Below, in pieces: positions 4,612 to 30,458 of a DNA stretch of 32,000 nucleotides (positions are counted from its first letter, which is position 1; each line of letters opens with the position of its first letter). The stretch is from Candidatus Saccharimonadota bacterium (GTDB lineage Bacteria > Bacillota_I > Bacilli_A > Mycoplasmatales > Hepatoplasmataceae). The notes beneath the pieces are model-generated. The model had not been told where the DNA came from. It did not search any database and worked only from the letters and a program-made list of their open reading frames with translations. The stretch is taken from assembly GCA_027925225.1 (NCBI GenBank), contig AP027131.1, positions 600,001 through 632,000 of the forward strand, given 5' to 3'. The translations under genes and the position numbers were made by a program.

Positions 4612-6949
4612 TTTTTACATTCCTTTTAAGATTAGAATTATTTAATCATTTCTCAATTTCTAACAAAGTTCCATTTACAAAATGATTATTCTGCACTTCA
4701 AAAGTAATAACATTTTTATATCTATTATAAATTTGAATTTTATCATCTCTCATACTGTAATCAATTTGTTTTTGTTCGCTTTTATTTACTGAAGTTTTAT
4801 TTAAAAAGAATTTTGTATAAGGGTGAATTGGATAATTAAAGATGTAGTTTGCTGTTCCATATTCAACAATGGAACCATATTGAAAAACATAAACTCTATC
4901 TGAAATATATTTTGTTGTTCCAAAATCATTTGTAATAAAAAGAATAGAAATTTTATATTTTTCTTTTATCAATTTTAAAATTTCTATTATTTCAAATTTT
5001 GTAATACTATCCAAAGAAGTAACTGATTCATCAGCAATTATTAACTTAGGATTAGAAACAAGAGCTTTTGCTATTAAAATTTTATGTTTTATTGAATTTG
5101 GAAATTGAAAGGGATAATAATCTAAAATATTTATAGGTAAATTTAAAATTTCAAAAATATCTAAAATTTTTTCTTTAAAAATATTTTCTTTATTTTTTTT
5201 AGAATAAAGATTTTCTATTATTTTTATATCTTCCAGTATTTTTATTCTTTGACTTTCTAAGTCTCTAATTTTTTTTGTTATTTCAAATGAAAATGTTTCC
5301 TCCTTTTCAAAATTTGAAATTCCTCGTTTTTTTATATTATTTACAAGATTTTCTTTTAAAGTATCTAACTTTTCATTAATATTTTTTTCTATTCATTTGT
5401 TTTTAACTAAAACTTTTACTAATTCTTTTTTTTCTTTTTTTAAATTTATAATTCTTGCTTTATCTGCTTTTTTTTGCAATGTATATTCTTTTTTAAAAAA
5501 TTTTCTTTGATTTTTAAATTTTCAACTCATAAGAGAAAGATAAACAGTACAAATTTTATTATTATAAAAATAAATGGTTTTATAGAAACTCTTTAAATTA
5601 TTTAAATTGTGATTATAAATTTCTTCTTTAGAATCTTCTAAAAATTTTAAAAACATTTTTTTAATTTCTCTAAAAAGAACTAACTCATAGTTTAAACTTA
5701 AAATTTCATCTTTTTTTAGCAAAATAAGTTCTTTGTTTGTAATTCTTTTATTTTTAATTTTTAAAAAATCAATATATTTTTCTAAGTTTTCAATTATTTC
5801 ACTTTGCTCTTCTAGACGTTTATTAATTTGATCTGTAAAATGATTCATAAATTTTTTAAAAGGAATTGAATTAATTGGAGATTTTTCAAAAAGTAAATTT
5901 TTAATATAATTTATTCTAACACTATATTTTTCAATAATAGGAAACTTCTCTTTTTCTGATAAAAGATAATTTAAATAAATAATTATTTCTTTTTTATTTT
6001 TTTTTACATCTTCTATTGATTTTATTTTTTCAAGTTCAAAATCAGGTTTTTCAAGAAAAATTTTAAAATCTATATCTTTTTTAAAAAGTTTTTGAAAAGT
6101 TTTTAATAAAAATGTTAATTCAGAAAAAATAAGAGAAAAATTTAATTTTTTTAAAAAATATTCGCTATCTAAATATAATATTGCATATTTTTCATCTTTA
6201 AAAGATAAAGATGCTATTTTTTTATCTTGTTCATAATTCTTTTTAATTTTTCTAATCTCAGTAAATTTTTCTTCTCTTAAAAATTTAATTTTTTCACGAT
6301 ATGTTAATCTATATTTCTTTTTTGATAATTTTGAATTTTTTATATTATTATTTATTTCTTTTAATTTTATTTTTTTTTCATAATAAAGCTGTTTTTGTTC
6401 TGTTTCTTTATAAAGCATATCTTTTTCACTTTTTAAAATACTATCTACTTTATTTATCATTTTATTTGCATTATATTTCTCAGGATATTTATATTTAAAT
6501 AATTTATTTTCAATTTCCTTTTTATTTTGATAAAGAATTTCTAATTCTTTTTCTTCTTCTTTTTCAAGAATTCCAAAGTCTTTAAATGATTTTTTTAAAA
6601 TTGTTTTTATCTTATCATTAGGATTTAAAGATGAAGCTGCATTTTCAAAAATCATTTGTACAGTTTCATAAATTCATCTATTTTTATTATTTATGTTTTT
6701 TATACCATGCGTTGGAATTAATTTTTCATTAATAATAATTTTTCCTTCGTAGAATTTATTGTAGCCTAAAATTGTTTTTGCTAGGGTTGTTTTTCCGGCA
6801 CCAGATTCACCAACTATTCCAACAATTTCATTTTTTTTAATTGTAAAATTTATATTATTTAAAACACTATCAATTTTTTTATATGATTTCATATTTATTG
6901 ATAAATTTTTTATTTCTAAAATTGTTTCGACTTTTTCTTTATTTTCCAT
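4595..6949 (-). CDS. oppF: oligopeptide ABC transporter ATP-binding protein with about 480-aa Lys/Glu-rich insertion
   Basis: All fragments are in one frame, giving 784 aa. Walker A is GESGAGKTT, the Q-loop region is QMIFENAASSLNP and Walker B is KLIIADES. The C-terminus YPIHPYTKFFL is typical of Opp ATPases. The gene reads through the TGA at 4646-4648 to TAG at 4595-4597. Confidence 0.85.
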
Positions 6950-18216: not shown

Positions 18217-18867
18217 TTAAATATTTAGGTTTTTTTTATCAATTAATTCAAAAAAACTATTTAAATTAGTTTTGTATTTATTTACTTTTTTAAATTTAGA
18301 TTTATATTTTTCAATATCAGATATTACAAAAAGATGATAAAGATCAATTGCAAATATTTCTAATTTATTATTCCTTATTGTACATATAACTCTGAGTTCT
18401 TTAGAAGTTTTATTATGTTCATTATTTTCAATATGATGTAATTTTAAATGATAAATTTCCTCAGATATTAAAAATCCTAAATTTAGAGAAAATAAAATTC
18501 TTTTTATTCGCCCATCTTTTTTAATTTTAAAAGGATCCTTTTCTTTTCTATCGTTTGAAAGAGCTAGATTCATAAGATTATTAATATAATCTTTTTTATT
18601 TTGAAAATATTCACAAATATTTTTATAAATAAAATCTAAATATTCATTTTCATCTGGTTTGTGAATTTTGACCATATTTGTAAAAGTGTAATTTTTTAAT
18701 ATATAAGATTTTTTAGCTAAAAGATTAATAAAAATTTCATTAGGATATTCTTCATTTTTTTTGTCAAATTTACTTAAAGATATTTTTCTATTAAGAGATA
18801 AATTTTTCTTAAAATTAACAGAATGAATTGTATTTTGATTTATTTTTTCTAAATCAATTTTATCCAT
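18217..18867 (-). CDS. hypothetical 216-aa protein, downstream partner of the DUF4065-like gene
   Basis: Uninterrupted ATG...TAA ORF starting 9 nt after the upstream stop. The C-terminal segment ELRVICTIRNNKLEIFAIDLYH vaguely recalls the RelE/HigB strand pattern. No firm family. Confidence 0.6.
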   Translation of the reverse strand: MDKIDLEKINQNTIHSVNFKKNLSLNRKISLSKFDKKNEEYPNEIFINLLAKKSYILKNYTFTNMVKIHKPDENEYLDFIYKNICEYFQNKKDYINNLMNLALSNDRKEKDPFKIKKDGRIKRILFSLNLGFLISEEIYHLKLHHIENNEHNKTSKELRVICTIRNNKLEIFAIDLYHLFVISDIEKYKSKFKKVNKYKTNLNSFFELIDKKNLNI

Positions 18868-18876
18868 ATTTAAATA

Positions 18877-19431
18877 TTAATATTCTTCTCTTTTAAAATA
18901 TTCTTCAATTATATTTTCAGATAAAATTTCTTTAGAATTTTTATCTTCTAAATTTCATGCTTCAATTCAAGAATTATCTTTATGGCTTCAATTAACTAAT
19001 GAAAAATCACTAATATCAAAAATATTGTTTAATAAAAAATCATCAATAAAATTTTTTGATTCATTATTTTCATTCATCTTTTTTGAATACAAAGAAAACT
19101 CATCTTTTATATTTTCATTTAATTTATTTTTAGATACTTTCATATATTCTTTATATTCTTCAAATATTTCTTTTTCAACAGGCCCAAATTGTCTTGCTTG
19201 AAATTTTGGATTAGAAAAAAGATAAATATTATCTTTTTTAATAATTTCACCTTCTTCATTTTCATTTTTTATTTCTTGATTTAATTTTTTATTAAAACCA
19301 CCTCAATAAGCAAATAAAAAATAAATTGATTTTTGAAATTTAATTGAAGAAATTTTCTTATTATATTTCTTTTCATAAAGAAGTGTAATATATTTTGCTA
19401 AATCTTTTTTATTATAAATACCTTTTTGCAT
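18877..19431 (-). CDS. DUF4065 / Panacea-domain-like protein (SocA/GepA-type putative antitoxin)
   Basis: 184 aa with 4 TGA=Trp. The pattern IKFQKSIYFLFAYWGG...FQARQFGPVEKEIFEEYKEY matches the remembered DUF4065 core (KLQKLLYF...W..GPV...vY..yk). Confidence 0.6.
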
Positions 19432-22340: not shown

Positions 22341-22583
22341 TTAATTTTTTATAAAATACAATATTTTTTTTAAAAATTTACATATTGATTTATATAAATT
22401 TCAAATTGAAGCTATATAAAAACCTAAATCAAAAAAAATTCATGTTAAAAATAAAATTTTTAAAAGTTTTATTTCAAAATCAGTATGTTCTCAATGATCA
22501 ATTTGATTTTTTGTTAAAATTGTAAGATATATAAAAAATGTACCTAATCCTAAAAAAATAAAAAATAAAATAAAGTTTTTCAT
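22341..22583 (-). CDS. array paralog 1: 80-aa two-TM protein (divergent C-terminus)
   Basis: Sequence MKNFILFFIFLGLGTFFIYLTILTKNQIDHWEHTDFEIKLLKILFLTWIFFDLGFYIASIWNLYKSICKFLKKILYFIKN. RBS is AAAGGA. Confidence 0.65.
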
Positions 22584-22630
22584 ATTATTAAAATCCTTTC
22601 TATTTAATTTTAAAAATTCAAATAATAAAA

Positions 22631-22659
22631 AATACTTAAAATTGTTAATTTTAAGTATT
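22631..22659 (-). terminator. inter-unit hairpin terminator (downstream of paralog 2)
   Basis: 13-bp arms aatacttaaaatt / aattttaagtatt with a 3-nt loop, followed on the minus strand by TTTTTATTATTT. Confidence 0.6.
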
Positions 22660-22678
22660 TATAAAATTTAAAATATAT

Positions 22679-22927
22679 TTATTTATTTTCTTCTTTTTTA
22701 AAAATTAATTTTATAAATTTATATAAATTTCAAAATGAAGCCATAACAAATCCAAGATCTAAAATGCAAATTGATGTGAATAATACTTTTAAGATTTTAA
22801 AATCAAAATTTGGATCATTGTGCTCATTCGAAGAAAAAGAGTTAATTTCATTTTTTATATTTGCTGCAAAATATCCAAAAAGCATTCCTAATCCTAAAAA
22901 AATTAAAAATCATATAAATGTTTTCAT
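22679..22927 (-). CDS. array paralog 2: 82-aa two-TM protein
   Basis: Sequence MKTFIWFLIFLGLGMLFGYFAANIKNEINSFSSNEHNDPNFDFKILKVLFTSICILDLGFVMASFWNLYKFIKLIFKKEENK. The frame was verified. Confidence 0.7.
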
Positions 22928-22974
22928 ATTATTAAAATCCTTTCTATTTAATTTTAAAAATTAAAATAATAAAA

Positions 22975-23003
22975 AATACTTAAAATTAATAATTTTAAGT
23001 ATT
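22975..23003 (-). terminator. inter-unit hairpin terminator (downstream of paralog 3)
   Basis: Same 13-bp arms with loop aat and a T-run on the minus strand. Confidence 0.6.
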
Positions 23004-23022
23004 TATAAAATTTAAAATATAT

Positions 23023-23286
23023 TTATTTATTTTCTTCTTTTTTAAAAATTAATTTTATACATATATATAAATTTCAAAATGAAGCTGTTAAAAATCCAAA
23101 ATCAAAAAAAATTGATGCAGAAAATAATATTTTATAAAGTTTAAGATCAAAATAAGAATCATCATGATTATAGTGATTATAATCCTCTATTTTTTCCTTA
23201 AAATCAACTGTAAAATATATAAAAATCATTCCTAAACCTAAAAAAATAAGAAATCAAATTAAATTTTTTATATTAAATTTTTTCAT
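23023..23286 (-). CDS. array paralog 3: 87-aa two-TM protein
   Basis: Sequence MKKFNIKNLIWFLIFLGLGMIFIYFTVDFKEKIEDYNHYNHDDSYFDLKLYKILFSASIFFDFGFLTASFWNLYICIKLIFKKEENK. RBS is AAGGAGAA. Confidence 0.75.
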
Positions 23287-23333
23287 ATTTATTTATTCTC
23301 CTTATTTTAATTTTTAAAATTAAAATAATAAAA

Positions 23334-23362
23334 AATACTTAAAATTATTAATTTTAAATATT
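23334..23362 (-). terminator. inter-unit hairpin terminator (downstream of paralog 4), one mismatch
   Basis: Same arms, but the right arm reads aattttaaatatt (g to a), giving one mismatch. Confidence 0.5.
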
Positions 23363-23381
23363 TATAAAATTTAAAATATAT

Positions 23382-23645
23382 TTACTTATTTTCTTCTTTT
23401 TTAAAAATTAATTTTATACATATATATAAATTTCAAAATGAAGCTGTTAAAAATCCAAAATCAAAAAAAATTGATGCAGAAAATAATATTTTATAAAGTT
23501 TAAGATCAATATAAGAATCATTATGATTGTGATAATTATAATGATCAATTTCATATTTTGTATTTACTGTAAAATATATAAAAATCATTCCTAAACCTAA
23601 AAAAATAAAAAATCAAATAAAATTTTTTATACTAAACTTTTTCAT
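23382..23645 (-). CDS. array paralog 4: 87-aa two-TM protein
   Basis: Sequence MKKFSIKNFIWFFIFLGLGMIFIYFTVNTKYEIDHYNYHNHNDSYIDLKLYKILFSASIFFDFGFLTASFWNLYICIKLIFKKEENK. Confidence 0.75.
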
Positions 23646-23692
23646 ATTTATTATTACCTTTCGTTTTAATTTTAAAAATTAAAATAATAAAA

Positions 23693-23721
23693 AATACTTA
23701 AAATTGTTAATTTTAAGTATT
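23693..23721 (-). terminator. inter-unit hairpin terminator (downstream of paralog 5)
   Basis: Perfect 13-bp arms with loop gtt. Confidence 0.6.
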
Positions 23722-23740
23722 TATAAAATTTAAAATATAT

Positions 23741-23995
23741 TTACTTATTTTCTTCTTTTTTAAGAATTGATTTTATACAGATGTATAAATTTCAAAATGA
23801 AGCAATAAAAAAACCAAAATCTAAGAAAAGAAAAGAAGAAAATAAAACTCTTAACAATACATAGTCTTTATGTTCAAAATCAGGATAATTAGTATTAATT
23901 TCTTCCATTGTTTTTCCTAAAAAATATGCAAAAAGAATTCCCAATCCAAAAAAAATAAAAAATCAAATTAAGTTTTTTATATTAAAATTTTTCAT
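23741..23995 (-). CDS. array paralog 5: 84-aa two-TM protein
   Basis: Sequence MKNFNIKNLIWFFIFFGLGILFAYFLGKTMEEINTNYPDFEHKDYVLLRVLFSSFLFLDFGFFIASFWNLYICIKSILKKEENK. Confidence 0.75.
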
Positions 23996-24041
23996 ATTTA
24001 TTTATTCTCCTTATTTTAATTTTAAAATTAAGAAAATAAAA

Positions 24042-24070
24042 AATACTTAAAATTGTTAATCTTAAGTATT
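24042..24070 (-). terminator. inter-unit hairpin terminator (downstream of paralog 6), one mismatch
   Basis: The right arm reads aatcttaagtatt (t to c), giving one mismatch. Confidence 0.5.
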
Positions 24071-24089
24071 TATAAAAATTAAAATATAT

Positions 24090-24347
24090 TTATTTATTTT
24101 CTTCTTTTTTAAGAATTGATTTTATACAGATGTATAAATTTCAAAATGAAGCAATAAAAAAACCAAAATCAAAAAATATTATTGATGTAAATAATATTTT
24201 TAAAAAAACTATTTCTAAATTAGTTAATTCAAATCCAATAGGACGGTTAATTTTATACATAATATTACTTGCAATATAAATAAAAAGGAATGATAATCCT
24301 AAAAAAATTAAAAATCAAATAAAATTTTTTATATTAAATTTTTTCAT
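24090..24347 (-). CDS. array paralog 6: 85-aa two-TM protein
   Basis: Sequence MKKFNIKNFIWFLIFLGLSFLFIYIASNIMYKINRPIGFELTNLEIVFLKILFTSIIFFDFGFFIASFWNLYICIKSILKKEENK. Confidence 0.75.
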
Positions 24348-24404
24348 ATTTACTTATTCTCCTTATTTTAATTTTAAAAATTAAAATAATAAAAAATACT
24401 TAAA

Positions 24405-24433
24405 ATTGATAATTTTAAGTATTTATAAAAATT
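24405..24433 (-). terminator. inter-unit hairpin terminator (downstream of paralog 7)
   Basis: Perfect 13-bp arms with loop gat. Confidence 0.6.
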
Positions 24434-24442
24434 AAAATATAT

Positions 24443-24690
24443 TTATTTATTTTCTTCTCTTTTAAAAATTAATTTTACAAATTTATATAAATTTCAAAAT
24501 GAAGCTGTAAAAAAGCCAAGATCTAAAAGAATCCATGCTGAAAATAAAATTTTATAAAGCTTAATTTCAAAATCAGAATGAGTACCATGATTAATTTCGT
24601 TTTTTGTATTTACTGTAAAATATATAAAAATCATTCCTAAACCTAAAAAAATTAAAAATCAAATAAATTTTTTTATATTAAAGTTTTTCA
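24443..24690 (-). pseudogene. array paralog 7, frameshifted at an A5 tract (or phase-OFF copy)
   Basis: The span is 248 nt, not a multiple of 3. The N-terminus MKNFNIKKFIWFLIFLGLGMIFIYFTVNTK is in frame with the ATG. The family C-terminus EINHGTHSDFEIKLYKILFSAWILLDLGFFTASFWNLYKFVKLIFKREENK lies in another frame. Read as given, the ORF stops at TAG 24525-24523. Confidence 0.7.
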
Positions 24691-24782
24691 TATTTATCAC
24701 TACCTTTCTATTTAATTTTAGAAATTAAAATAAAATTTTTAAAAAAAATAAATAAGTTTTGATAATAAGATTTATATTTAGG

Positions 24783-24854: not shown

Positions 24855-24887
24855 AAATGATTTTAAAACTAAAATAAAAGGAGAAAA

Positions 24888-26846
24888 ATGAAAATTTTTT
24901 TATTCAAAAATACAAAAATTAATAAAAATAGAACTATTCTTAATTTTATGGGAAACGAAAACTTAAATTCTTATTTAAAAAAAAATAATAAAAACTTTAA
25001 TTCAAATAATGATAAAAATTTCTTAGAAATTTCTGGCGAGGAAATAAAAAATGATTTTTTTAAAGAAAAATTTCAAATTTTAGATTTAGACAAAGATTTC
25101 TTAAACTATGATTTTGCAATTGTAAAGTCTTTTCCATATTCAAATGGAAAAGACTTTTATTTTTTTATAAAAAATATAAAAATAGTAAGTTCTAGTCAAA
25201 TTGAATTGTCTTTTGAATTTGACTTTATTTCAACTTGAAATATTTGAGAAATAATATTAATTAATGAAAAAATAGCTATTAAACAAGGACATTTAAAACA
25301 AGGAATTAATTTTGAATTAAATAAAAAAAAATTAGCAAAAAATGCTTTCTTTAGAAAAAAACAATTATTAAGTAAAAACCATAATTTAAAAACAATTTAT
25401 ATTCCAGAATCATTAATAAATAACAATGAAAAAAAAATGAAGGAAATTTTTAAATTTGATAAATGATTAATTTGTTTTATGGATTCTAATTTTGGAATGG
25501 GTGTAGATTTTAAAAATGTAATAAAAATAAGTGATCCAAATTCAAATGGAACTTTTGAATATAAATATAATATAATTGCTTTACCTTTCTCTGAAAATAA
25601 TGAAATTATGTTTAGAGGAAAATATACATCAAAAGAAAACATTATTACAGTTTCAAAAGATACAAAAATAAATGCATTTGAAATTTATAAAAATTTACAA
25701 GAAAATAAAACTTTTATTTATGGTTATTTAATAGATAGACTGCCCTTAAATAATATAAACTTTATTTCCGATGAAACAGGAAATTATATTACTGGAATTG
25801 ATATTTATGAAGTAAAAACTGATCCAAATAAGGATAATGGTGATGATAGTGATCAATATAATATTATTGTTCCAATAATTAAAGAAATTAGCTCAAATGT
25901 AAAAATAAATTATAAATCTTCACAAAAATTATTTAATTGAGAAGAAGCAGATAATAATTTTAAAAATGATAATGATTGAAAAAATATTATCTGAAAAAAA
26001 GAACAAGAAGCAATTTTAAATTTTGCTCCTTTTAAAAAATATGAAATAGGTATTTATACAGAAAATACAAACTCAGGATTTAAATTTGATTTAAACGATT
26101 TAATAAATTTAAATGTTCATGAAAATGATTATCTTAATATATTTGTAACTTTTGAACCGTATATTTTTGATACTGCTTTTGAATTAAAAGAAAGAGAAAA
26201 TACAGAAAATAATACTGATTATTATTATGGAGAAAGAATTTTTAAATTAAAACGTTCTATTGTAATTCCATATGAAAATTCAAAATGAATTGAAAATATG
26301 AAAAATAAAGAATTATCGGGATCTCAAAATTTTTTAACACCTGGGAAAAAAGCAGTTGGTTCTGTATTGTCTTCTCTAATTCCTGAAACTAAATTTTTAG
26401 ATTGAATGATACCTGGAGCAAAAATAGGAGCAAAATTATTTAAATCTATATTTGGGAAAGAAGACGAAAAAAGCGAAGAACCTGATTCAACCGCAAATAC
26501 AGGAACAGATTTAAATGTTGAAATATTAAGCAGTTATGATTTTAAAACTTTAAAAATAACAAAATATTTAGAAAGTGATGAAAATAAATTAGCATTTCAT
26601 ATTCATAAATATGGATATAACTTATTTGATGAACATTATTATCTGTCAGAAATACTTTTAGCAAGAACTAGATTTAATTTTATACAACTATCTGATTTTG
26701 AAACTGAAGAAATATTTAGTAATATACCTAATATTTATAAAAGTGAATATTTAGAAAGATTAAAATCTGGAATAACATTTTGAAATTTTATACAAGATGA
26801 ATTTGCTGATGTTTATGGAATAAATAAATTTATATTTAAATACTAA
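24888..26846 (+). CDS. phage tail knob / distal tail-tube protein, phi29 gp9-like
   Basis: RBS is AAAGGAGAAAA. The three track ORFs share one frame and are joined by 9 TGA=Trp, with the gaps checked, giving 652 aa. The N-domain YSNGKDFYFFIKNIKIVSSSQIELSFEFDFISTWNIW compares with remembered gp9 [35 protein letters not shown]. The C-terminus HKYGYNLF...RTRFNFIQ...SGITFWN compares with gp9 HKYGYKIN...RKAFNYVQ...NGITLWH. Confidence 0.7.
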
Positions 26847-26877: not shown

Positions 26878-27543
26878 ATGGCAATAAAAAATCCAGATGC
26901 AAAACAATTATCTTTAATTCAAATTTTAACTGATTATTTAATTACAATAGATGCAACTTTAGAAGGTGGAATAAATCAAGAAATAATAAATGAAAATAAT
27001 TTTACATCATTAAATCAAATAAAAACACTTGTTGAAACAGATACATATAATATATCAGCAAATGAAGCAAGTATTGGTACACTATCTAATCTTAATACTA
27101 CTGCAAATGCTGATTTAGTTCAATCTATAAACGAATTAAAAGATGCAATTAATATGATAAATGGTAAAGGAACTAGTTCTTATCCAGTTGGAACAATAGT
27201 AATAGCTCCAACTGCTCCTCAAATAGGAGGCTGAGAAAATTTAGGAGAAGTTTTAGAAGGACAAGCAATAATAGGCGGAACTTCAACCTATGGTTCAGTA
27301 ATGTCTCATACACACAATGTTGAATATAATGGTTCAGCAGATGATTATGAACATAAATATTGAGATATATGTGATAATATGAGTTCAGGAAATTATAGTA
27401 GAGGAAGCTCAAACAATAGTGGTAATTTATATGTTGATATAGCAAATAGATTACAAATTATTTCAACAGGAGGAAAAGAAAATATTCCATATGGAATAGG
27501 AATGGGATTAGGGCTTTATGTTTGAAAAAAAAATTCAAAATAA
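26878..27543 (+). CDS. tail-fibre / receptor-binding-like protein with tail-collar-type C-domain, paralog 1
   Basis: AGAGGTG lies 6 nt before ATG 26878. 221 aa with 3 TGA=Trp. Motifs seen: the fibre motif NADLVQSINELKDAI, the collar-like YPVGTIVIAPTAPQIGGWENLG and the H-x-H motif MSHTHNVEYNGSA. Confidence 0.65.
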
Positions 27544-27576: not shown

Positions 27577-28245
27577 ATGAATACAAAAAAAGGTAATTTA
27601 GATCAAGTAATTTTTGCTTCAATTTTAACAAATCAAGTTATACCAACAGATGCAGCTAGAGAAGGTGGAGAAAATCAAGAAATAATAAATGATAATAACT
27701 TTACATTGATAAACCAAGCAAATGAAAATATTAATAAAAACATATCAAATATTTCTATAAATACAAATAACATAGGTAATTTATCTAGTCTTAAAACTAA
27801 TATGAAATCAAATTTAGTAGATGCAATTAACGAGCTAAAAGATGAAATTGATTTAATAACAGGAGGAAATGGAACTACTCCTTATCCAATAGGAACAATA
27901 GTAATAGCTCCAACTGCTCCCGAAATAGGAAATTGAGAAGATTTAGGAGAAATCTTAGAAGGCCAAGCAATAATAGGTGGATCTTCATCTGATGGTTCAA
28001 TAATAGCACATACACATAATATTGAATATAATGGTTCAGCAGAGGGAATTAGTAACAAATTTTGAGATGAATCTGCAGATGATATGAGTGGAAATTATAG
28101 CAGAGGAGCTTCAGATAATGGTGATGGTAATTTTTATGCAGATATAGCAAGCAAATTAAAAATTACAACTACAGGAAATGATAAAAATAGAGCTTATGGA
28201 ATTGGACTAGGATTAGGGCTTCATCTTTGAAAAAGAATTAGTTAA
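27577..28245 (+). CDS. tail-fibre / receptor-binding-like protein, paralog 2
   Basis: RBS is AAAGGAGGAAAT. 222 aa, roughly 60% identical by eye to paralog 1. Motifs seen: SNLVDAINELKDEI, YPIGTIVIAPTAPEIGNWEDLG, AHTHNIEYNGSA. Confidence 0.65.
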
Positions 28246-28283
28246 TTAAAAGTAAAAATGACAATAAGAAATTAATATTTTTT

Positions 28284-28410
28284 ATGTTTCAAGAAACAAC
28301 AAAAAAATGAATTTTATATTTTAATAAATTTATTAATTGTATTTACTTTAATTACGTTAGGATTATTGTTTTTTATAACCATAATAGAACTACTAATATT
28401 TTTTGGATAA
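28284..28410 (+). pseudogene. possible frameshifted remnant duplicating the N-terminal TM of the downstream membrane protein
   Basis: The ATG-frame reads MFQETTKKWILYF.... The +1 frame reads ...LINLLIVFTLITLGLLFFITIIELLIFFG*. Together they mirror MKKEKKILYFLIALSIIFTLVILGLLGG of the next gene. No single intact frame exists. Confidence 0.25.
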
Positions 28411-28456
28411 TTAAAAAATAAATAAAATAAAGGAATTTAACAATAAAAAAATAAAA

Positions 28457-29131
28457 ATGAAAAAAGAAAAAAAGATACTTTATTTTTTAATAGCTTTATC
28501 AATTATATTCACCTTAGTAATATTGGGATTGTTGGGAGGAACTCTTGCAAACAATAATTCTTATGCTTATGATGAATTTAATAAATGAATGATGTGTAGA
28601 AATGCAATGTTTGCATTTACAGCACTAGCTTCTTTATCAATAATAGCATTAATAATATTTATTATATTTAAAAATACAAATCAAGAAAATAAATTGAAAA
28701 TTGAAAAAAAAGAAATAAATAAGAATGATAATTTAAATGAAATAAATGATAAAAATATAACAAAAAATGTAAATAACTTTAAAAAAGAAATTAAAAATGG
28801 AAAGAAAACTTATAAAAAAGGATTATTGTGTCTTTTATTTTTTGGCTTATTTCTTATATTAATACCAATAATGATTAATACTAAAAATACTATTAATGAT
28901 TTAAAAGATGATTTAAGATATTTATCTGATGTTGAATTATTAGTTCTAAAAAATCAAAGAATTTTACTTGTTTCATTAATTTTTATTGATGCTTTTTTTG
29001 CATTAATGTCTTTTAAATATTTTTATAATTCTTTAATTAATTTAAATATTTTAGGAAAAAATCTAGAAATAGAAGAAAAGAAAAAGAGAGAAAGAAACTT
29101 AGAAGAAGAAGAAATAAATTTTATCAATTAG
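28457..29131 (+). CDS. 224-aa four-TM membrane protein with charged central loop and Glu/Lys-rich C-tail (hypothetical)
   Basis: ATG 28457 is in frame with track ORF 28589-29131 through one TGA. There are four hydrophobic helices, and the tail reads EIEEKKKRERNLEEEEINFIN. Confidence 0.6.
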
Positions 29132-29230: not shown

Positions 29231-29306
29231 TGGTGGTTCAGGACGGAATCGAACCGCCGACACAGGGTGCTTCAAACCCTTGCTCTACCGACTGAGCTAC
29301 TGAACC
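29231..29306 (-). tRNA. tRNA-Phe (GAA), CCA encoded
   Basis: Reverse complement is GGTTCAGTAGCTCAGTCGGTAGAGCAAGGGTTTGAAGCACCCT...GGTTCGATTCC...ACCA. Anticodon loop is TTGAAGC. Confidence 0.9.
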
Positions 29307-29311
29307 TTAAT

Positions 29312-29387
29312 TGGCGGTTCTGACGGGAATCGAACCCGCGATCTCCTCTGTGACAGAGAGGCGTGATAACCACTTCACTACAGAACC
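29312..29387 (-). tRNA. tRNA-Asp (GTC), CCA encoded
   Basis: Reverse complement begins GGTTCTGTAGTGAAGTGGTTATCAC. Anticodon arm is CCTCT-CTGTCAC-AGAGG. T-arm is GGTTCGATTCC. Confidence 0.9.
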
Positions 29388-29389
29388 AT

Positions 29390-29466
<77 letters not shown>

Positions 29467-29480
29467 ATATTATTTTAAAA

Positions 29481-29573
29481 TGGCGGAGATGGAGGGATTC
29501 GAACCCCCGCGCAGCTTTCACCACCTGGTAGTTTTCAAGACTACTCCCTTCAGCCAGACTTGGGTACATCTCC
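29481..29573 (-). tRNA. tRNA-Ser (TGA), class II, CCA encoded
   Basis: 93 nt with a long variable arm. Anticodon arm is GTAGT-CTTGAAA-ACTAC. Discriminator is G. Confidence 0.9.
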
Positions 29574-29596
29574 AAAGCCATTTTAAAATGTTTGAT

Positions 29597-29673
29597 TGGT
29601 GGTCCGTGCTGGACTCGAACCAGCGACCAACCGGTTATGAGCCGGTGGCTCTAACCAACTGAGCTAACGGACC
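29597..29673 (-). tRNA. tRNA with CAT anticodon, probable tRNA-Ile2 (lysidine type)
   Basis: Anticodon loop is CTCATAA. The body GGTCCGTTAGCTCAGTTGGTTAGAGC resembles Firmicute tRNA-Ile(CAU). Its position in the conserved order Met-Ile-Ser-fMet-Asp-Phe supports this call. Confidence 0.7.
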
Positions 29674-29697
29674 ATACAATACAAATTAATTAATTGT

Positions 29698-29774
29698 TGG
29701 TAGCGAGAGAGGGATTTGAACCCACGACCTATCGGATATGAACCGAGCGCTCTAACCAACTGAGCTACCTCGCC
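29698..29774 (-). tRNA. elongator tRNA-Met (CAT), CCA encoded
   Basis: Anticodon loop is TTCATAT and the acceptor stem GGCGAGG is fully paired. Confidence 0.8.
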
Positions 29775-29775
29775 A

Positions 29776-29851
29776 TGGTGGAGCGGATGAGATTCGAACT
29801 CACGACCTCCTATGTGCAAGACAGGTGCTCTACCAACTAAGCTACCGCCCC
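29776..29851 (-). tRNA. tRNA-Ala (TGC), CCA encoded
   Basis: Acceptor stem GGGGCGG carries the G3:U70 identity pair. Anticodon loop is CTTGCAC. Confidence 0.9.
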
Positions 29852-29852
29852 A

Positions 29853-29929
29853 TGGTCGGGAAGACAAGACTTGAACTTGCGACCCTTGCGTCCCAAACGC
29901 AATGCTCTGCCAAACTGAGCTACTTCCCG
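29853..29929 (-). tRNA. tRNA-Pro (TGG), CCA encoded
   Basis: Anticodon arm is TTGCG-TTTGGGA-CGCAA. Acceptor stem is CGGGAAG. Confidence 0.9.
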
Positions 29930-29963
29930 AAGAGAGATTTTTTTAAATTTATCCTATAAAATT

Positions 29964-30040
<77 letters not shown>

Positions 30041-30041
30041 A

Positions 30042-30126
30042 TGGTGCGGGTGGAGGGACTCGAACCCTCACGTCTCTCGACACTAGATCCTAAGTCTAGC
30101 GTGTCTGCCAATTCCACCACACCCGC
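30042..30126 (-). tRNA. tRNA-Leu (TAG), class II, CCA encoded
   Basis: 85 nt with a long variable arm. Anticodon arm is CTAGA-CTTAGGA-TCTAG. Confidence 0.9.
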
Positions 30127-30129
30127 ACA

Positions 30130-30206
30130 TGGTGCCGTTGATAGGAATCGAACCTACGACCTACTGATTACAAGTCAGTTGCTCTGGCCTGCTGAGCTAC
30201 AACGGC
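30130..30206 (-). tRNA. tRNA-Thr (TGT), CCA encoded
   Basis: Anticodon arm is ACTGA-CTTGTAA-TCAGT. Confidence 0.9.
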
Positions 30207-30220
30207 TTGGGTTGTAAGAT

Positions 30221-30296
30221 TGGTGGGGCATATAGGACTTGAACCTATGACCTCCTGCTTGTAAGGCAGATGCTCTCCCAACTGAGCTAATACCCC
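30221..30296 (-). tRNA. tRNA-Val (TAC), CCA encoded
   Basis: Anticodon arm is TCTGC-CTTACAA-GCAGG. Confidence 0.9.
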
Positions 30297-30301
30297 TTTA
30301 T

Positions 30302-30377
30302 TGGTGACCCATACGGGACTCGAACCCGTGAATGCTAGGATGAAAACCTAGTGTGTTAACCTCTTCACCAATGGGCC
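30302..30377 (-). tRNA. tRNA-Glu (TTC), CCA encoded
   Basis: Anticodon arm is CTAGG-TTTTCAT-CCTAG. Confidence 0.9.
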
Positions 30378-30383
30378 AAAAAA

Positions 30384-30458
30384 TGGCGCTCCGGAGAGGA
30401 TTCGAACCTCCGACCAACTGGTTAACAGCCAGCTGCTCTACCGCTGAGCTACCAGAGC
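30384..30458 (-). tRNA. tRNA-Asn (GTT), CCA encoded
   Basis: Anticodon arm is GCTGG-CTGTTAA-CCAGT. Discriminator is G. Confidence 0.9.

Follow-up and report, generated by a model that had tools for sequence, protein, structure and literature searches.

Why should a bacterium with a genome reduced to 662 kb keep the tip of a phage tail? The question is raised by Candidatus Hepatoplasma vulgare, a Mollicute symbiont of the isopod midgut gland (PMC10928387). Analysed here are 32,000 nucleotides (nt) of its contig AP027131.1 (assembly GCA_027925225.1, positions 600,001 to 632,000 of the forward strand); this whole stretch is called the window, and positions are counted from its first letter. At 24888..26846 (+) it carries an open reading frame (ORF) for a protein of 652 amino acids (aa), which is identical to the NCBI entry HPAVJP_5640 on the 662-kb contig. 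The protein belongs to the phi29 gp9 tail-knob (distal tail tube) family, of which it is a very divergent member, and two genes for phage tail fibres follow it. That a minimal Mollicute chromosome should retain a podophage knob with its fibres but no head genes nearby is new in its details, though related situations are known. About 3.3 kb of headless phage tail tip are held under selection in a reduced genome, and therefore a functional explanation is called for. The one that we favour, if with some reserve, is a podophage knob-plus-fibre module that was captured and has since been retained.

A very divergent gp9-type tail knob

The extent of the gene depends on the genetic code. With table 11, the interval breaks up into three ORFs of the same frame, 24888..25238, 25479..25940 and 26406..26783. 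With table 4, they fuse into a single ORF of 652 aa, as a preliminary description of this DNA had stated; nine TGA codons stand in frame. Code 4 is correct for the window, because the summed length of all its ORFs of 100 aa or more doubles (9382 aa versus 4469 aa with table 11) and because the TGA codons of the knob gene fall on alignment columns that are tryptophan or aromatic in the homologues. The TGA-encoded positions 193, 369, 467 and 632 show W in 10-16 of 19 sequences; position 632 pairs with the W of 'GITLW' in gp9, the protein of a phage with the standard code. The window contains 21% guanine plus cytosine (GC), and from this composition alone we infer that 652 codons without TAA or TAG are far beyond chance. 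A Shine-Dalgarno sequence, AAGGAG, stands at 24878..24883 (+), 4 nt 5' of the ATG.

A scan of 7 kb found a sole terminator-like hairpin, at 25124-25157 (+), with a stem of 14 bp followed by a T-run. It lies within the knob ORF, where the conserved FPYSNGKDFYFF is encoded, and probably reflects nothing more than the coding sequence itself. A promoter scan yielded 62 sites versus 73.5 in shuffles; DNA so rich in A and T makes such a scan meaningless.

Taken as a single sequence, the protein finds no match in Pfam, PHROGs or the PDB sequences, and a tblastn search of 50,697 phage records remained empty. A word-index search retrieved one sole homologue, with 74% identity, and an alignment of five rows found no confirmed related locus in genome, viral and metagenome collections. 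The family became visible by an exhaustive HMMER scan of 1.84 billion cluster representatives, which yielded 19 homologues, mostly of 620-820 aa, 16 of them below 1e-10. The resulting alignment of 20 rows is built around conserved blocks: LNFxPFKxFEIG, a Gly/Ala-rich stretch, KNxPDT, FHKxG, RFNYLKLS and GIxFWN. One family member reaches PF20934 (8e-6), and two reach phrog_2248 'tail protein' (1.9e-18).

Searched against the PDB, the family profile has phi29 gp9 as its best match (5fb4/5fb5/5fei; E-value for 5fb4_A 2.6e-9), the next match being at E 0.45. The match consists of two collinear stretches, 29-133 with 29-133 and 283-617 with 237-590. By hhalign, gp9 as taken from NC_011048 is matched with a probability of 96.8% and E 2.6e-10, residues 470-588 of gp9 pairing with the C-terminal block of the knob. 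The pairings with gp9 that the preliminary description had proposed (the N-terminal domain, FAPFKKYEIG... and the series HKYGY / FN[FY][IV]Q / GIT[FL]W) come out of HMMER in the same register and the same order.

The structure leads to the same family. An AlphaFold model with an alignment of two rows was unusable, its predicted local distance difference test score (pLDDT) being 29.5, and the alignment of 20 rows was used instead. It gave a pLDDT of 73.3 and a predicted template-modelling score (pTM) of 0.69. By Foldseek, the top nine PDB matches of this model are tail knobs (E 7e-21 to 5e-12); the next match is at E 0.12. Those to phi29 gp9 range from E 7e-21 (5fb5_A) to 2e-17, with template-modelling (TM) scores of 0.56-0.64 over about 680-700 columns. 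The suggested comparison of a model with the gp9 crystal structure thus produced a full-length match that preserves the order. The knobs of Streptococcus phage C1 (gp12, 4eo2) and Staphylococcus phage Andhra (8egs_Y) follow with 1e-13 and 5e-12. Among the viral models of BFVD, gp9 of phage Nf is on top (5.5e-22), and about 20 distal-tube or major tail proteins of podoviruses match. The identity between knob and gp9 in the structural alignment is only 12-14%.

The homology to gp9, as originally proposed, is sound, since profile, hhalign and the structural comparison with three solved knobs and some 20 viral models agree; the match is significant and the alignment is collinear. It can be seen only with a family profile or a model; the single sequence stays below the Pfam and PHROG thresholds. 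The phi29 gp9 tail-knob family is thereby extended to Mollicutes, a group that goes unmentioned in a 2024 review of phi29-like phages.

What is shared with phi29 gp9 (PDB 5FB4, 5FB5 and 5FEI; C-terminal domain PF20934) is a collinear fold over the full length. It comprises the N-terminal block, the LNFxPFK/MMYPYC strand region, a long loop at the same place and the C-terminal FHKYGY...RxFNY...GITxW block. The N-terminal domain of the knob (aa 1-135, 24888..25292, +) pairs with gp9 29-133 by HMMER and is modelled with a pLDDT of 76-92. The C-terminal block (aa 546-652, 26523..26846, +), which hhalign pairs with gp9, displays the motifs FHKYGY, RFNF[IL]Q and GITFW and is the best-conserved part of the protein. 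Unlike gp9, the window knob is chromosomal; connector, collar, gp12 appendage and gp13 hydrolase are not found nearby, and its host lacks a wall. The C1 and Andhra knobs (4EO2 and 8EGS) have the same fold, yet they are virion parts of lytic picoviruses with walled Gram-positive hosts, and at the sequence level no match to the window protein was found.

The loop deserves particular attention. According to a passage in PMC6542822, which cites Xu et al. 2016, the L-loop of gp9 is hydrophobic and pore-forming and is kept as a helix bundle inside the knob; upon release, the same passage continues, the loop builds a barrel of hydrophobic helices with a height of about the thickness of a bilayer.

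An amphipathic stretch at this position had been proposed for the window protein, the peptide then cited being residues 477-523 (nt 26316-26456), and the analysis bears this out. In the profile alignment, aa 475-531 of the knob (26310..26480, +) pair with about 417-491 of gp9, the L-loop. The sole long stretch of low confidence in the model, aa 463-545, contains this loop, and the most amphipathic 18-mer of the entire protein, aa 502-519, lies within it (hydrophobic moment muH 0.51). The composition is different. In gp9, 5 of 75 residues carry a charge, and up to 53 in a row, of Gly, Ala, Ser and Met, carry none; the window loop is Lys-rich, with 16 of 57 residues charged and no uncharged run longer than 11. 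Many phage-borne members have 4-8 charged residues and longest uncharged runs of 21-44. In the nearest phage clade (the knobs P0003-5) the numbers are 6-12 and 13-19. An activity of the window loop on membranes, in the manner of an amphipathic helix, is plausible.

Fibres, neighbours and phage-borne relatives

The knob stands alone only in part. The gene order in the window is YchF, ParB, ParA, seven small genes for proteins with two transmembrane segments (-), the knob, two paralogues, a membrane protein of 224 aa (+), 14 transfer RNA (tRNA) genes and TrkA. The flanks of the knob module, ParAB and YchF on one side and the tRNAs and TrkA on the other, are thus housekeeping genes.

The two paralogues, which share 55% identity, are encoded at 26878..27543 (+; 221 aa, HPAVJP_5650) and 27577..28245 (+; 222 aa, HPAVJP_5660), with the ribosome-binding sites GAGGTG and AAGGAGG, respectively. 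The first shows a phage-type, docking-like N-terminal domain, a coiled coil and a fibre-tip domain; PHROG tail-fibre matches are weak and amount to 5e-5 to 3e-4 for the second. At the C-terminal end, 120-170 of their residues match the C-terminus of a 511-aa protein directly after the knob of a related phage contig, L006 (BLASTP 2.4e-13 for paralogue 1). Their N-terminal 45-60 residues match the protein directly after the knob of another, L008 (BLASTP 1e-4 for paralogue 1). By these two independent criteria, the paralogues are phage tail fibres, and the order of knob and fibre in the window is that of the related phage contigs. A resemblance of the fibre tip to the 'tail collar' domain of T4 gp12 was considered and is unsupported; the domain profile has no match in PDB or Pfam.

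Homologues of connector, packaging ATPase and capsid protein are lacking in the window and in the contigs L001 and L002 of two chromosomal relatives. At the window locus, neither integrase nor lysin was found, and a search for an att-like repeat of the tRNA-Phe gene was negative. The module is not an integrated prophage, because integrase, att repeats and contiguous head or packaging genes are missing from the window. The term 'stand-alone', which the preliminary description had applied to the knob, is correct as regards head, connector and packaging genes; it fails in that two phage-type fibre genes follow in phage order. What is present is a headless knob with fibres, not a lone gene. The same description had noted the absence of a peptidoglycan hydrolase, which agrees with the missing lysin.

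The only close homologue of the knob, P0002, resides on L001, a contig of 8.4 kb from a different sample. The order there, YchF-ParB-ParA, then one small two-transmembrane gene (-), knob and fibre, is syntenic with the window. Between parA and the knob module of this relative (L001 3072-5454), a PHP/ATPase protein of 704 aa and one of 104 aa match the PADLOC models PDC-M49 A and B (2.9e-91 and 7e-16). The site between parA and knob is a variable hot spot, since L001 has PDC-M49 where the window has its array of two-transmembrane genes.

A further contig from the sample of L001, L013, shares about 69% DNA identity with the region of fibres and membrane protein in the window. In L013 the fibre-tip domain is multiplied, and two copies are fused to the two-transmembrane N-terminal domain of the 224-aa window protein.

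Where the knob came from is best judged from the contigs of the other family members, of which twelve were examined. Nine of the twelve sit on small contigs of 4.5-10.9 kb with code 4, a GC content of 23-29% and genes largely on one strand. An all-against-all comparison revealed a common core: a connector (phrog_2038), a protein of 150-200 aa, the knob, often a fibre, a packaging ATPase (phrog_2150) and a protein of about 430-525 aa. The last is a putative capsid protein with a weak match to major head proteins. The N-terminus of the L006 fibre is phrog_1219-like. In every sampled phage genome of the family, its own knob adjoins the connector.

L003, L004 and L005, contigs from three NCBI assemblies, are rotations of one another with terminal overlaps of 140-141 nt and describe a circle of about 8.59 kb; L007 has a terminal overlap of 55 nt, L008 and L016 one of 30 nt. 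In the 8.6-kb genome, a separate fibre gene is missing. L011 encodes a Rep_1 rolling-circle initiator. These genomes, together with L017, are apparently complete, circularly assembling, code-4 tailed phages of about 8.6-10.9 kb. If complete, they fall below the smallest tailed phage listed in two reviews, Mycoplasma phage P1 with 11.66 kb. In L003, about 1.07 kb (5595-6667) are without called genes.

A family-B DNA polymerase and inverted terminal repeats were not seen on the mini-phage contigs, and four of the genomes had no Rfam match to the packaging RNA (pRNA). The related phages differ from the Salasmaviridae, being circular by direct overlaps, with neither inverted repeats nor protein-primed polymerase or pRNA detected, and with Rep_1 in L011. 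They look like mini-podophages of Mollicutes, in which phi29-like morphogenesis genes are combined with a replication unlike that of phi29 or Mycoplasma phage P1. P1 itself (Delislevirus, 11.66 kb) is likewise a short-tailed Mollicute phage with code 4 (PMC13375369). It differs in its linear genome with inverted repeats of 350 bp and a DNA polymerase. The link of the knob to P1 that had been envisaged was not borne out: with filters off, the family hidden Markov model (HMM) reached no better than E 0.43 in the six P1 frames under code 4. Spiroplasma phage NSRO-P1, also searched with filters off, gave no match.

A neighbour-joining tree, calculated without support values, places the Hepatoplasma pair as sister group of the phage-borne clade P0003/P0004/P0005; the window knob is 27-33% identical to the sampled phage knobs. 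The mini-podophages are the likely source of the Hepatoplasma knob, since nine of the twelve sampled relatives sit on such genomes. Judging from tree and synteny, the ancestor of the two Hepatoplasma lineages would have captured a phage segment with knob and fibre between parA and the tRNA cluster, and the fibre gene would have been duplicated thereafter.

A second chromosomal copy is P0008, of 766 aa, at 10001-12301 of L002, a code-4 contig of 52 kb. It has kept a hydrophobic loop and has a C-terminal extension. Around it lie RCC1-repeat, methyltransferase, ThsB-TIR and GIY-YIG genes, and further phage core genes are lacking in its vicinity. Since P0008 groups with the phage-borne P0010 in the tree, and the Hepatoplasma pair with P0003/P0004/P0005, the data suggest at least two independent captures of the knob from phages.

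Retention and possible roles

The knob is a retained gene under purifying selection, like its housekeeping neighbours, and not debris. The ratio of non-synonymous to synonymous substitution (dN/dS) was calculated according to Nei-Gojobori with code 4 for window genes and their L001 orthologues. It is 0.30 for the whole knob (dS 0.43, 77% aa identity), which compares with 0.25 for YchF, 0.29 for ParB and 0.07 for ParA. Of five knob segments, the C-terminal block has the lowest value, 0.17, and the loop the highest, 0.41; the N-terminal domain has 0.25. The ORF is intact in both Hepatoplasma lineages, and knob and both fibres are preceded by good ribosome-binding sites. An intact knob in a genome of about 20% GC and 662 kb, in which stop codons arise easily, argues for function.

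How could such a module work? By homology to gp9, six copies of the knob would form a tube, and the fibres would dock on it via their conserved N-terminal domain. The loop, aa 475-531, situated in or near the lumen, would be released and insert as an amphipathic helix into a bare lipid membrane. A peptidoglycan hydrolase would not be needed, because the target is wall-less. This sequence of tube, docking and insertion, proposed by analogy, appears to us the probable one at the level of the proteins, with ample room for doubt. The system offers a testable candidate for the way in which short tails breach a bare membrane without such a hydrolase.

What the cell gains is a more speculative matter. 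Tentatively, a headless tail-tip particle might bind other wall-less cells via its fibres and permeabilise them, like a minimal tailocin. The adjacent small membrane proteins would then be candidate immunity factors; in size and architecture they presumably resemble small membrane proteins of immunity or superinfection exclusion, T4 Imm among them. Where selection is known to have preserved phage tail genes without heads, these serve as weapons or delivery devices. The slow, housekeeping-like evolution of the knob also fits a cell-autonomous role.

A related idea, possible if doubtful, is that the podophage tail tip was domesticated in wall-less bacteria, after at least two apparent captures, as a free-standing minimal pore former that is aimed by its fibres at competing Mollicutes, or as a poison-subunit defence against mini-podophages, with the two-transmembrane array as the means of immunity or exclusion. 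If true, no tailocin-like or defence derivative would have come from a short-tailed phage before this one, and the bare membrane would render the rest of the tail dispensable.

The comparison with tailocins should not be carried too far. Known tailocins derive from long tails, contractile or flexible, that comprise tube, sheath, tape-measure and baseplate, and lysis and regulatory cassettes accompany them. The resemblance to the R- and F-types and to monocin is that tail genes are maintained in a chromosome without head genes, at least within the 32-kb window, and that fibres could set the range of targets. In contrast to tailocins, the window has only a podophage knob and fibres, and genes for tube, sheath, tape-measure, baseplate and lysis were not found. 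Since tube/sheath, baseplate and lysis genes are absent, the Hepatoplasma module is not classed as a tailocin; the resemblance is functional only.

Several points weigh against a retained, membrane-active tail tip. Read by itself, the knob protein remains short of the Pfam, PHROG and PDB sequence thresholds, and its headlessness covers the 32-kb window only. The phi29 knob assembles onto a collar and a connector (PMC6542822), and both are absent from the window. A route for lysis or export is not evident, knob and fibres having no signal peptide as read from their sequences. The Hepatoplasma loop has the highest charge and the lowest hydrophobicity in the family. Its insertion may differ from that of gp9, and pore formation is therefore unproven, though plausible.

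The same loop is one of the arguments for a different function, interference with phages. Constitutive knob and fibres, the former a hexamer and the latter multimers, would co-assemble with the tail parts of infecting mini-podophages, or sequester them, and thereby yield defective virions, while the two-transmembrane proteins block penetration. A loop more charged than in all other members is what one would expect of a disabled subunit, and the docking-like N-terminal domain of the fibres is conserved with phage fibres. The company of the knobs points in the same direction: the relative's locus adjoins the candidate defence system PDC-M49 A/B, and the P0008 copy lies about 8 kb from the ThsB-TIR gene and about 1.5 kb from the methyltransferase gene. 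The relative further possesses membrane-tethered fibre-tip fusions with the tip probably in the cytoplasm, according to the positive-inside rule.

Adjacency is, however, weak evidence, since defence islands double as hot spots of insertion, and the loops of the nearest phage clade are already fairly charged. A decoy in an arms race should follow its targets, yet the knob shares no more than 27-33% identity with the phage knobs sampled; its evolution keeps the slow pace of housekeeping genes, and no segment has a raised dN/dS. Nor does any PADLOC model match knob, fibres or small membrane proteins. Interference is thus unlikely to be the explanation.

Could the module simply be inert, left over from a phage insertion that has degraded, and still intact by chance? 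Insertions beside tRNA clusters are common, the integrase, the att-like repeat and the head and packaging genes are not found, and the distribution is patchy, with an orthologue in only two genomes among about 15 billion proteins. Yet two lineages separated by a dS of about 0.43 have both kept a 1.9-kb ORF open, with a dN/dS of 0.30 along its whole length, where stops arise easily at 20% GC and the genome has been reduced to 662 kb. Moreover, the fibres were duplicated, the fibre-tip domain was expanded into new fusions, and the ribosome-binding sites are good. This makes an inert remnant distinctly improbable.

Very improbable, too, is that the tail tip is one part of a complete phage or satellite, with head and packaging genes at another locus or on an episomal mini-phage that uses the tail tip in trans. 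The related phages are indeed tiny and modular, the 8.6-kb genome does without a separate fibre gene, and the absence of head genes is established for the 32-kb window, L001 and L002 only. But each sampled phage of the family carries its own knob beside the connector, and the H. vulgare genome paper does not contain the word 'prophage', its three mentions of 'phage' referring to defence systems. We know of no split tail-tip arrangement.

That the knob is no homologue of gp9 and owes its likeness to composition or chance, as empty single-sequence searches and an identity of only 12-14% might suggest, can be regarded as effectively refuted: profile, hhalign and structure agree independently, each with at least eight orders of magnitude to the next match, and the homologues are located in podophage morphogenesis modules.

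Further features of the locus

The seven tandem genes divergent from the knob (22341..24700, -) encode two-transmembrane proteins of 80-87 aa; in the relative, a single copy occupies the same place. The array is a repeat (22603-24733) with a unit of 359 bp and 79% matches. The paralogues vary mostly in the loop between the transmembrane segments, where the proportion of non-synonymous differences (pN) is 0.42 versus 0.12-0.15 elsewhere. Positive selection in this loop was considered and is not demonstrable, its ratio to the synonymous proportion (pN/pS) being 0.87.

Downstream of the fibres, the gene at 28457..29131 (+) encodes the membrane protein of 224 aa, the N-terminal two-transmembrane domain of which is 61-66% identical to that of the fusion proteins of 225 aa and 269 aa in L013. 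The protein is associated with the module. A phage origin is only possible, as significant relatives on the phage contigs are lacking; neither this N-terminal family nor that of the small two-transmembrane proteins had a significant match there. Between the second fibre gene and the 224-aa gene, an open frame at about 28276-28450 (+) matches the HMM of the N-terminal transmembrane domain with E 5e-6 and is probably a degraded extra copy of it.

In L013, at 316-1125 and 2318-2995, the fibre-tip domain is fused to an N-terminal domain with two or four transmembrane segments that is homologous to 28457-29131. The tip domain of these fusions probably faces the cytoplasm by the positive-inside rule. 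Two more soluble fibre-like paralogues, of 223 and 307 aa, come after them.

The 14 tRNA genes (29231-30458, -) lie directly downstream of the module, and the 3' end of tRNA-Phe faces it. Farther upstream, between gltX and ychF, a SocA/Panacea-domain antitoxin-like protein of 184 aa (Pfam E 1.6e-5, just above the gathering score) adjoins a protein of 216 aa without a family match. The two genes (18217-19431, -) are possibly a toxin-antitoxin pair.

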